Part shown: positions 1,462 to 2,257 of the stretch, one piece after another | Numbering within the stretch: position 1 is the first letter of the stretch | How the letters are laid out: every line of letters starts with the position of its first letter | Virus record (IMG/VR): IMGVR_UViG_2859810971_000005 | From: a virus | Lineage: Duplodnaviria > Heunggongvirae > Uroviricota > Caudoviricetes | DNA: 16,792 nt | Direction: 5' to 3' (one strand) | Notes under the pieces: generated by a model | What the model was told of the DNA's origin: nothing | The model's database searches: none | Seen by the model: the letters and a program-made list of their open reading frames with translations, nothing else | Position numbers and translations under genes: made by a program

Positions 1462-1738
1462 ATATGTCCTTTTACCACTACATCAAGTCATTGATTCGAT
1501 TAAACAATTTTCATTGAAAAAGTGCCAAAAATCGCAAATTGACTACACCATTAACTACACCGTTCGGTGCACTGTATGAAACAACGTGGAACAAATAGAC
1601 ACAAGAAATATACAGGCGGGTAATCTTTCCAGGGGGAAGCGCACCAATTCATGAGGGGCGTTAATGTCGATATGGGGATCCCCATAACGGGGCTACCGGA
1701 TTTTTTTTCCGGTTAACCTTTAATCAGGCTGGTGGGTT

Positions 1739-1855
1739 TTACATACCCTTGATCACCGTAATGATGATCCAGATGTGCACCTTTTCCACCAATGGCGGAA
1801 AAGCTCCAACCGTAACGATGATCGCTATGGTTGCCTCGATGGTCTGCGTGGTCAT
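1739..1855 (-). CDS. possible 38-aa hydrophobic micro-protein (speculative)
   Basis: ATG at complement 1853-1855 to TAA at 1739-1741; product MTTQTIEATIAIIVTVGAFPPLVEKVHIWIIITVIKGM is one predicted TM helix. No convincing Shine-Dalgarno sequence. Confidence 0.15.
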   Translation of the reverse strand: MTTQTIEATIAIIVTVGAFPPLVEKVHIWIIITVIKGM

Positions 1856-2257
1856 TATGACCGTTCAGCCAGTGACCTTAATCAGAATTTTTCGCTAAAA
1901 AATGACGTTGGCCACGTCATCCGGAAAGCACAAAATCACGTCGATTTTTAATGAACGGTTAAACCGTCTTTTTGTCACGGTGTGTCACTGGTTGTCACTC
2001 TCCGTCACGATTGAGGTGGTGGTCATTCTGCCCGACCGCGCATTTTTGCGCTATCGGGAATATCAAACAGTTACCTCGCCGACTTCCTCAAATTGAGGTT
2101 TCCGAAAATATCAGAGCGGGTTAGCGATTAAGCTGACGAGTAATTAAACTGCGAAAATTTCGTAGTTTCTGAATATATTCCGGCCTGCTGGTTAACAGTC
2201 CTCAGATGTGAGGGATGTAGCCAGCGCAATTTTGCGCTTTGCTTTAATCTCAGTGAG

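Follow-up and report, generated by a model that had tools for sequence, protein, structure and literature searches.

The non-coding DNA behind phoQ in a satellite island: a probable int-distal cf-PICI terminus carrying a mobile GTCAY repeat module

Introduction

Directly behind phoQ, the DNA analysed here (IMG/VR virus record IMGVR_UViG_2859810971_000005; its full 16,792 nucleotides are called the window) holds about 800 bp of repeat-rich sequence, positions 1462-2257, before the last gene of the neighbouring operon. What is this stretch, and what are its repeats for? The first-pass annotation, made from the sequence itself, had read it as the terminus of an island with recombinase arm-type sites, an att core and possibly a cos or pac-like packaging site.

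In our reading, which we consider likely together with the workings proposed below, 1462-2257 is the int-distal, non-coding end of a capsid-forming phage-inducible chromosomal island (cf-PICI) inserted between phoQ and roxA. Elements of this kind are already known. This is an ordinary int-distal terminus, and it does not overturn the current understanding of PICIs.

Results

Gene content and insertion site of the island

Positions 1-1461 hold phoQ, which is read from the plus strand. The island starts at about 1470 and fills the rest of the window, and all its genes lie on the minus strand. At one island end an inward-pointing int (15563-16792) encodes a P4-type tyrosine integrase (Pfam PF13356 Arm-DNA-bind_3, E = 5e-18) and is followed by alpA (15000-15188, Pfam). 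A D5-type primase is encoded at 10501-12249 (Pfam), and the island origin at 10220-10500 consists of GTCTACC/GGTAGAC iterons on both sides of an A+T-rich segment. The int-alpA layout, the primase with its iteron origin and the dedicated att site are those of a Gram-negative PICI. The window also encodes an HK97-type capsid, an HNH nuclease, a P27-family TerS and TerL (Pfam). When these matches are taken together with the RefSeq annotation of the complete relative L001, the whole cf-PICI gene set is found (capsid, protease, portal, connectors, HNH, TerS and TerL), and no tail or lysis genes are annotated by RefSeq in L001. One near relative had been sequenced under the "phage" name vB_KppS-Ant. 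The window shares both gene content and gene order with the cf-PICIs (prototype EcCIEDL933; bioRxiv 10.1101/2022.09.08.507074):

int, alpA, primase, capsid, protease, portal, connectors, HNH, TerS, TerL

The cf-PICI reports consulted, bioRxiv 10.1101/2022.09.08.507074 among them, do not describe the terminal non-coding region and do not map the cos.

The insertion locus is that of O-island 51 (CP-933C, Sp7) of O157:H7 and of EcCICFT073 of CFT073. These islands share with the window the phoQ-ycfD (roxA) site, the int/alpA module, the arm sequences, the 93-aa last gene and much of the non-coding tail (~89% identity). However, they carry a classical packaging module with a capsid, a decoration protein, an rpp-like gene and two lambda-like cos sites, whereas the window has genes for the HK97-type capsid, portal, HNH, TerS and TerL. 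In the O157 and O55 islands the segment 1870-2065, and with it the TGTCAC array described below, is also missing.

The gene that borders the region of interest is the last one of the island:

2258-2539, minus strand: last island gene, 93 aa, phrog_1561 (PHROG match)

A homologue search with its product returned 965 "hypothetical proteins", a contig scan of genomes gave close relatives only, and an AlphaFold model (three helices, pLDDT 70) had no fold match in the PDB. These searches therefore gave no clue to a binding of the repeats downstream. RgdR was ruled out as the identity of this gene, since that protein has 99 aa and another gene of the island encodes it. The tRNA scan found no tRNA gene.

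The junction and the att core

One feature marks the boundary between chromosome and island:

1460-1469, no strand: att core AAATATGTCC, int-distal junction (attR in the PICI convention)

Its first two bases are also the final two of the phoQ stop codon (1459-1461). The complete relative L001 has this 10-mer at each end (20061-20070 and 35625-35634), and the empty site of K-12 reads AAATATGCCC. AAATATG(T/C)CC is thus common to attL, attR and the K-12 attB, with the right junction of this comparison taken from L001. Since the K-12 empty site and both L001 junctions share it, the core corresponds to 1460-1469 of the window. Nearly all complete E. coli genomes match the window (5366 of 5426), and most of them stop matching at ~1466-1469. 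From the junction point K-12 continues directly into roxA, whose start lies 75 bp past the phoQ stop codon.

The short phoQ-roxA spacing in K-12, which the first-pass annotation had given, is therefore correct. Its placement of the junction within about 100 bp of the phoQ stop also held, and the alignments sharpen it to 10 bp. The claim of an island terminus is confirmed by the phoQ-roxA site, by a complete relative at this site and by K-12, which has no insert there. In E. coli 2014C-3097 (NZ_CP027449.1) the whole of a related element (96.6% identity) sits between phoQ and roxA. The exact junction is now fixed for a satellite island directly behind the virulence regulator phoQ. Strand exchange by the P4-type tyrosine integrase would take place within AAATATGTCC (1460-1469). 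Integration leaves phoQ intact.

A different att core had been proposed before, namely AACAACGTGGAACAA at 1580-1594. This assignment fails, since the sequence is a member of the AACAA box family and returns unchanged at 9010-9024; the boxes, discussed in the next section, are probably AlpA sites.

Putative integrase and AlpA sites in the arm

The attachment-site arm would extend from ~1470 to 1605, which is ~140 bp beyond the core. It contains the following elements:

1477-1484, plus strand: core-proximal ACTACATC, a perfect ACTACACC in L001 and variable among relatives
1542-1561, plus strand: doublet ACTACACC-N4-ACTACACC, putative arm-type sites of the P4-type integrase
1580-1604, plus strand: three AACAA boxes (AACAA, AACAA, CACAA) with 10-bp phasing, putative AlpA sites

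Arm-type sites of a recombinase are very probably present in this terminus, as had been expected, and our candidate for them is the doublet rather than the TGTCAC array to which they had been assigned. The first-pass annotation had listed the doublet as a tandem GGTGTAGT repeat. The repeat is real and consists of ACTACACC at 1542-1549 and 1554-1561 with a period of 12. In every complete island examined the ACTACACC doublet occurs exactly twice, one per arm and in the same orientation:

L001: doublets at 20148 and 35480
L003: doublets at 17147 and 28124
L004: doublets at 17055 and 28335

The pattern holds for islands at phoQ (L001, L003) as well as at tqsA (L004). The doublets stand ~87-92 bp from the core on the int-distal side and ~136-140 bp from it on the side of int. 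Both arms of an island at tRNA-Pro/yejO, whose integrase is a different one, carry AGCTACACG-N3-AGCTATACG in place of the doublet, so that the arm motif covaries with the integrase in the one contrasting island type compared (L144). The int-proximal arm of the window's own island lies beyond the end of the window, and its arm pairing is therefore deduced from the relatives.

Based on this distribution, the ACTACACC doublet is the best candidate for the arm-type site of the integrase. We assign it to the arm-binding domain since it was found only in the arms. The N-terminal domain of the integrase would most likely bind the doublet and bridge it to the doublet of the other arm. The core-proximal ACTACATC may possibly be an extra integrase site.

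The phased AACAA pattern was found 15 times against 1.7 matches expected by chance. With the exception of one extra match in L004, the exact arrays are restricted to four places: the two att arms, the int-alpA spacer (five units, 15471-15515) and the region upstream of the late operon (three units, 9010-9034). The flanking chromosome, searched over >20 kb, has no such array, and in L144, the one island with another int/alpA module, they are missing from the corresponding places. AlpA has been reported as a transcription activator and a member of the excisionase family (PMC10111431). Because the boxes stand both in the arms and at promoters, AlpA is a natural candidate for their ligand, and they are probably AlpA sites (excision factor or activator). 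AlpA would most likely act on the boxes of the arms as an excision directionality factor, and it would act as an activator at the alpA and late-operon promoters. The two assignments, ACTACACC to Int and AACAA to AlpA, could also be the other way round.

A similar arrangement is described for the attP of helper-embedded PICIs (HE-PICIs), where a doubled motif lies 81 and 132 bp from the attP centre and the authors are agnostic on whether Int or AlpA binds it (PMC10111431). There too, a doubled short motif is present once per arm, co-oriented and at similar distances. The motif sequence is a different one and the integrase belongs to another clade than that of this island. Unlike in HE-PICIs, the arms described here also share phased AACAA boxes that recur at promoters. 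The putative integrase doublets and the phased AACAA boxes offer concrete sites for the excision and switch-on of this large family of E. coli and Shigella satellites.

The tail is a non-coding mosaic

Beyond the arm, the tail at 1605-2257 is a non-coding mosaic. An alignment of 13 related termini shows it as a patchwork, and 1500-1720 is conserved there wherever this type of integrase occurs. Searched by blastn, 1470-2260 had no match among 50,697 phage records, and only 4 plasmid records matched. In the mechanism that we propose, the mosaic tail would have no role in integration or packaging. Apart from the array, which is treated separately, it contains the following elements:

1671-1686, no strand: perfect 16-bp palindrome TATGGGGATCCCCATA, GATC-centred
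1697-1716, no strand: hairpin ACCGGA-T7-TCCGGT, conserved in relatives
1717-1870, no strand: ORF-like, non-coding segment with a direct repeat, a hairpin at 1776-1808 and a palindrome at 1850-1862
1897-1921, minus strand: terminator-like hairpin ATGACGT-N5-ACGTCAT followed by T6, in the late-operon direction
1955-1972, plus strand: terminator-like hairpin ACGGT-TAA-ACCGT followed by CTTTTT, from the consensus scan and relatives
2019-2262, minus strand: four to five degenerate 50-70-bp units, from the repeat families in the window

All motifs of the first-pass annotation exist, with coordinates that were off by 0-2 nt. The palindrome ATGGGGATCCCCAT lies at 1672-1685 within a full palindrome that spans 1671-1686. 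The direct repeat ACCGTAA(T/C)GATGATC is found at 1755-1769 and 1809-1823, and the palindrome GGTCAT-T-ATGACC, which had been placed at 1848-1860, is found at 1850-1862.

In islands with other integrases the GATC palindrome is either kept or swapped for another GATC-centred near-palindrome. Together with the hairpin at 1697-1716 it folds better than shuffled sequences (z = -2.4 on the plus strand and -3.65 on the minus strand). The hairpin at 1776-1808 inside the ORF-like segment is imperfect.

We then considered whether the tail has a product of its own. The earlier statement that it holds no convincing ORF agrees with our data on stops, frameshifts, codon-position bias and annotation. In the closest relative the RefSeq annotation leaves the stretch from phoQ to the 93-aa gene empty. 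About 1000 E. coli genomes carry the ORF-like segment 1717-1870, and it is almost never annotated. A small product could be a hydrophobic peptide from either strand at 1749-1898, a His-rich peptide from the minus strand, or an sRNA ending at the hairpin 1955-1972. Both strands do have open frames. In one relative, L009, there is a 60-aa version that starts with ATG, although it is the only copy with an ATG, and RefSeq annotates a 52-aa CDS in L013. However, the ORF-like frames are broken in most copies by stops and frameshifts, with a net 7-nt length difference (2+5-nt gaps) among relatives. The variable sites are spread over the codon positions as 6/4/4 and 4/2/4, which shows no third-position bias. 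The three candidate small ORF products had no match in Pfam, NCBIfam or PHROG, and inspection found no convincing ribosome-binding site. For an RNA speak three hairpin substitutions that are G-U-compatible, on the plus strand only. Against it, Rfam gave no match for the whole window at the gathering threshold or for 1400-2400 even at E <= 5, and the fold of 1895-1975 is no better than that of shuffles (z = -0.6 on the plus and -1.3 on the minus strand). We therefore regard a small peptide or RNA product as quite improbable, and the ORF-like segment 1717-1870 would be a decaying one within the non-coding mosaic.

The two terminator-like hairpins face each other in front of the array. The consensus scan did not flag a terminator at 1897-1921. 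ACCGTCTTTTT, which is part of the 1955-1972 hairpin, lies directly 5' of every array copy; L015 and L016 have a different hairpin upstream of the array. Both hairpins may terminate transcription, but the fold of 1895-1975, where they lie, does not differ from shuffles. As a convergent pair they could insulate the late operon and read-through from phoQ from each other.

Each degenerate unit at the distal end of the tail combines a short AT-centred hairpin with a GAATATCA...GTTACC box, and the units copy the last gene at its 3' end, along with the hairpin that follows it. Minus-strand folds of this part reach z = -2.5 and -2.6. The number of units differs between islands, and the relative L017 has a 54-bp tandem repeat there in 2.3 copies with 80% identity. 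The units look like recombination scars in a "dynamic late zone", a term from the literature (PMC10111431). These degenerate copies of the late-operon 3' end would have been left by recombination between islands.

The packaging site probably maps elsewhere

Structured, repeat-rich DNA immediately downstream of terminase genes suggests a packaging site, and in some satellites the cos lies near one end. The first-pass annotation had accordingly considered a cos or pac-like site within 1462-2257. This was not confirmed. The lambda cosN GGGCGGCGACCT with the flanking cosQ had no match anywhere in the window, with up to 3 mismatches over 17 nt allowed. In the classical relatives at the phoQ site, two inverted lambda-like cos sites flank the rpp-like gene, which RefSeq calls a terminase small subunit or a hypothetical protein, and they lie upstream of the 93-aa gene.

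The cf-PICI relatives point to a third place. A 16.5-kb cf-PICI was deposited as a phage, and the two ends of its record lie 22 bp before terS. These ends follow a G-rich GGGGTGGGGG...TTTTCAGGAC motif, and the same motif is present at ~4541-4570 of the window. The cos of HK97 likewise lies between HNH and terS. By this homology the HK97-type cos of this family would map between HNH and terS, near position 4540 of the window. The identical TerS protein (WP_000113645.1) is found in islands with and without the array, which argues further against a packaging function of the repeats. We therefore consider it highly improbable that 1462-2257 carries the cos or pac site of the island. Repeat-rich DNA beside terminase genes is not necessarily a packaging site.

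The TGTCAC array and the GTCAY module

The most conspicuous repeats of the tail are the following:

1973-2008, plus strand: four (T/C)GTCAC hexamers with exact 10-bp phasing, core of a GTCAY-rich module

The array had been noted before and is real, with TGTCAC at 1973, 1983 and 1993 and CGTCAC at 2003. It did not arise by chance: a four-unit YGTCAC-N4 pattern with <= 2 mismatches was found in 0 of 200 dinucleotide shuffles. Among eight distinct array variants, which come from 8 related sequences, 2 of 24 hexamer positions vary compared with 7 of 12 spacer positions (Fisher p = 0.0025). Conserved hexamers with variable spacers suggest a binding site of some sequence-specific protein.

The array is embedded in a module of ~180 bp (~1848-2030). 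Over 190 bp there are 10 GTCA(C/T) sites where 0.83 would be expected, and a count of six or more is reached by no other stretch of that length in the window. Four of the sites are direct repeats, another four form two palindromic pairs, and two stand singly. About 5% of the E. coli genomes carry the module (256 of 5426), and it is absent from the 50,697 phage records searched. Its presence is independent of the att site, the integrase, the replication gene and the packaging module. Two islands have a five-unit array directly after the stop codon of the last gene, and two others have the module's left half but lack the array. Since the module is independent of the type of island, the array is neither an arm site nor a cos, and it is not required for the integration of the island itself.

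This also decides on the original interpretation of the array as arm-type sites of the island's own integrase. In its favour are the tandem, helically phased repeats close to an island end and a loose likeness to the lambda arm-type consensus (A/C)(A/G)GTCACTAT. That consensus, however, is not enriched (34 matches against 29.7 expected), and the integrase is of the P4 type and not of the lambda type. The core is ~510 bp away from the array, and the other arm has no second copy. Five islands (L003, L010, L014, L143 and L008) lack the array despite the same att site and int-type arm sequences, while islands with other integrases and sites have it. Very little speaks for the array as an arm site after this, and we give that interpretation hardly any probability; the ACTACACC doublet stays our candidate.

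Known binding proteins were compared as well. In a Pho box, direct repeats of CTGTCAT recur every 11 bp and lie upstream of a -10 element. PhoB was rejected, as the period of the array is exactly 10 bp and the scan flagged no promoter-like site near it. MatP and DnaA boxes were rejected likewise, since spacing or symmetry does not fit their consensus sequences.

A resemblance to replication origins was found in viral contigs. When these were scanned for four GTCAC units at 10-bp phasing, at least 120 loci were obtained. In all five representative loci checked the array lies inside an ORF of 275-350 aa, and in three of the five the next gene was confirmed as a DnaB-like helicase. In the largest class, E. 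coli phage annotations name this ORF replication protein O or replisome organiser. Since they lie inside O-type genes, such arrays appear to be the origin iterons of one lambdoid initiator class, and the array of the island shares with them the GTCAC hexamers, the 10-bp phasing and the four or more copies. Direct and inverted repeats around an A+T-rich spacer are the classic layout of iteron origins and operators, and in the module the same half-site is repeated both directly and in inverted orientation, together with an A+T-rich spacer. For its own origin the island has GTCTACC iterons. The array is thus not cognate to its own primase and could mimic the origin of a helper.

The GTCAY module might then be an iteron-type site for the replication initiator of a lambdoid helper, serving as a secondary origin or as a decoy that titrates the initiator. 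By mimicking lambdoid origin iterons it would capture or titrate the O-type initiator of the helper, with co-replication or helper interference as the outcome. If true, the module would be a piracy device that acts in cis and passes from one PICI to another regardless of which integration, replication and packaging modules they carry. Several observations disagree with this. Beyond the hexamer there is no sequence similarity to phage origins, and the orientation of the hexamers relative to the A+T-rich stretch is opposite to that in the phage origin examined. The phased direct repeats of an iteron origin are there, but no initiator gene contains the array or lies next to it, unlike in the lambdoid O genes, and the module occurs with differing replication genes. 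It is also optional. HK97-like phages serve as helpers of this satellite family, and HK97 has no such array. We regard a role as an initiator site as doubtful, and the capture or titration of a helper initiator by mimicry as unlikely. Within the int-distal terminus of a cf-PICI, our preferred reading, we flag the conserved, mobile and putatively protein-binding repeat module as the modest open question.

Decay of the island copy

Unlike the cf-PICI prototype, this copy of the island is decayed. Its terL is frameshifted by the loss of 1 nt near 3252, and the capsid gene has a premature stop at 7967-7969. At 4527-4533 a deletion of 91-98 bp has removed the native start of terS. An IS1 insertion at ~12.8-13.5 kb inflates the length of the island, where Gram-negative PICIs measure about 10-15 kb. 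Because of the gene lesions this copy is probably immobile. None of the complete E. coli genomes closely matches the whole window. A Shigella flexneri chromosome is identical to it over the parts of the window that were compared.

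Gene lesions and host affinity

The island behind phoQ carries an IS1 element and several damaged genes (window coordinates):

2553-4213: large terminase gene, in which the loss of 1 nt near 3252 leaves two separate ORFs
4527-4570 region: deletion of 91-98 bp, flanked by short direct repeats
7637-8842: HK97-type major capsid gene, with a stop codon (7967-7969) that breaks its frame
about 12750-13520: IS1 insertion inside the island (insA 13205-13480, insB 12783-13286)

The terminase lesion is defined relative to the intact gene of E. coli 2014C-3097, the host of a complete relative island. 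In the capsid gene, the Pfam Phage_capsid match is divided between two ORFs. The native start codon of terS was lost through the 91-98-bp deletion, and the gene is now fused in frame to an ATG further upstream; the same deletion also takes the DNA immediately downstream of GGGGTGGGGGCGTTTTCAGGAC, the motif presumed to mark cos. Together, the IS1 insertion and the other gene lesions suggest that the host resembles Shigella. Across the parts compared, the window and S. flexneri SFBU1023 are identical.

Shared elements of the island

A GATC-centred palindrome (1671-1686) lies some 200 bp away from the att core and has equivalents in four related loci (L015, L016, L018 and L144). Its retention across islands that differ in integrase and att site suggests that it serves a common factor, of host or island origin, which may be sensitive to Dam methylation. 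Further elements lie elsewhere in the window:

2258-2539: last gene, 93 aa, phrog_1561
9010-9034: array of three AACAA boxes with a period of exactly 10 bp, upstream of the late (capsid) operon
10220-10500: origin of replication of the island itself, placed downstream of its primase gene
15471-15515: array of five AACAA boxes, also with a period of exactly 10 bp, in the int-alpA spacer

The 15 nt from 9010 match 1580-1594 of the att arm with no differences. At the origin, an A+T-rich stretch is placed between two sets of GTCTACC/GGTAGAC iterons, a layout shared with that described for PICI origins. The 93-aa gene is conserved and terminal in classical and capsid-forming PICIs alike; its protein has no family annotation, and a predicted three-helix model gave no match to solved folds.

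Related islands and cos sites

In classical PICIs, an rpp-like gene, annotated in RefSeq as terminase small subunit or hypothetical protein, sits between two lambda-like cos sites that are inverted relative to each other. In L003 these sites lie at 17978-18023 and 18850-18914, and the pair is also found in L004, L007, L010, L011, L013 and L014, islands that occupy the phoQ site and other sites. These cos sites match the published cos1/cos2 primer flanks of EcCICFT073.

The 16.5-kb record 'Escherichia phage vB_KppS-Ant' (L019; GenBank LR881103.1) is a capsid-forming PICI. It encodes integrase, primase, capsid, portal, HNH, TerS and TerL and has no tail or lysis module; the one gene labelled 'tail tape measure' seems to be an accessory gene with a wrong annotation. 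The record ends are located 22 bp ahead of terS.

GTCAC arrays in viral contigs

GTCAC arrays with 10-bp phasing are widespread among viral contigs (IMG/VR loci, L020 and L021-L139), for example at 3044-3110 and 3325-3375 of L020. In the loci checked, the arrays lie within O-like replication initiator genes, and in three cases a DnaB-like helicase gene was confirmed just downstream. In one class, the L021 type, the array is located immediately upstream of a portal gene instead.
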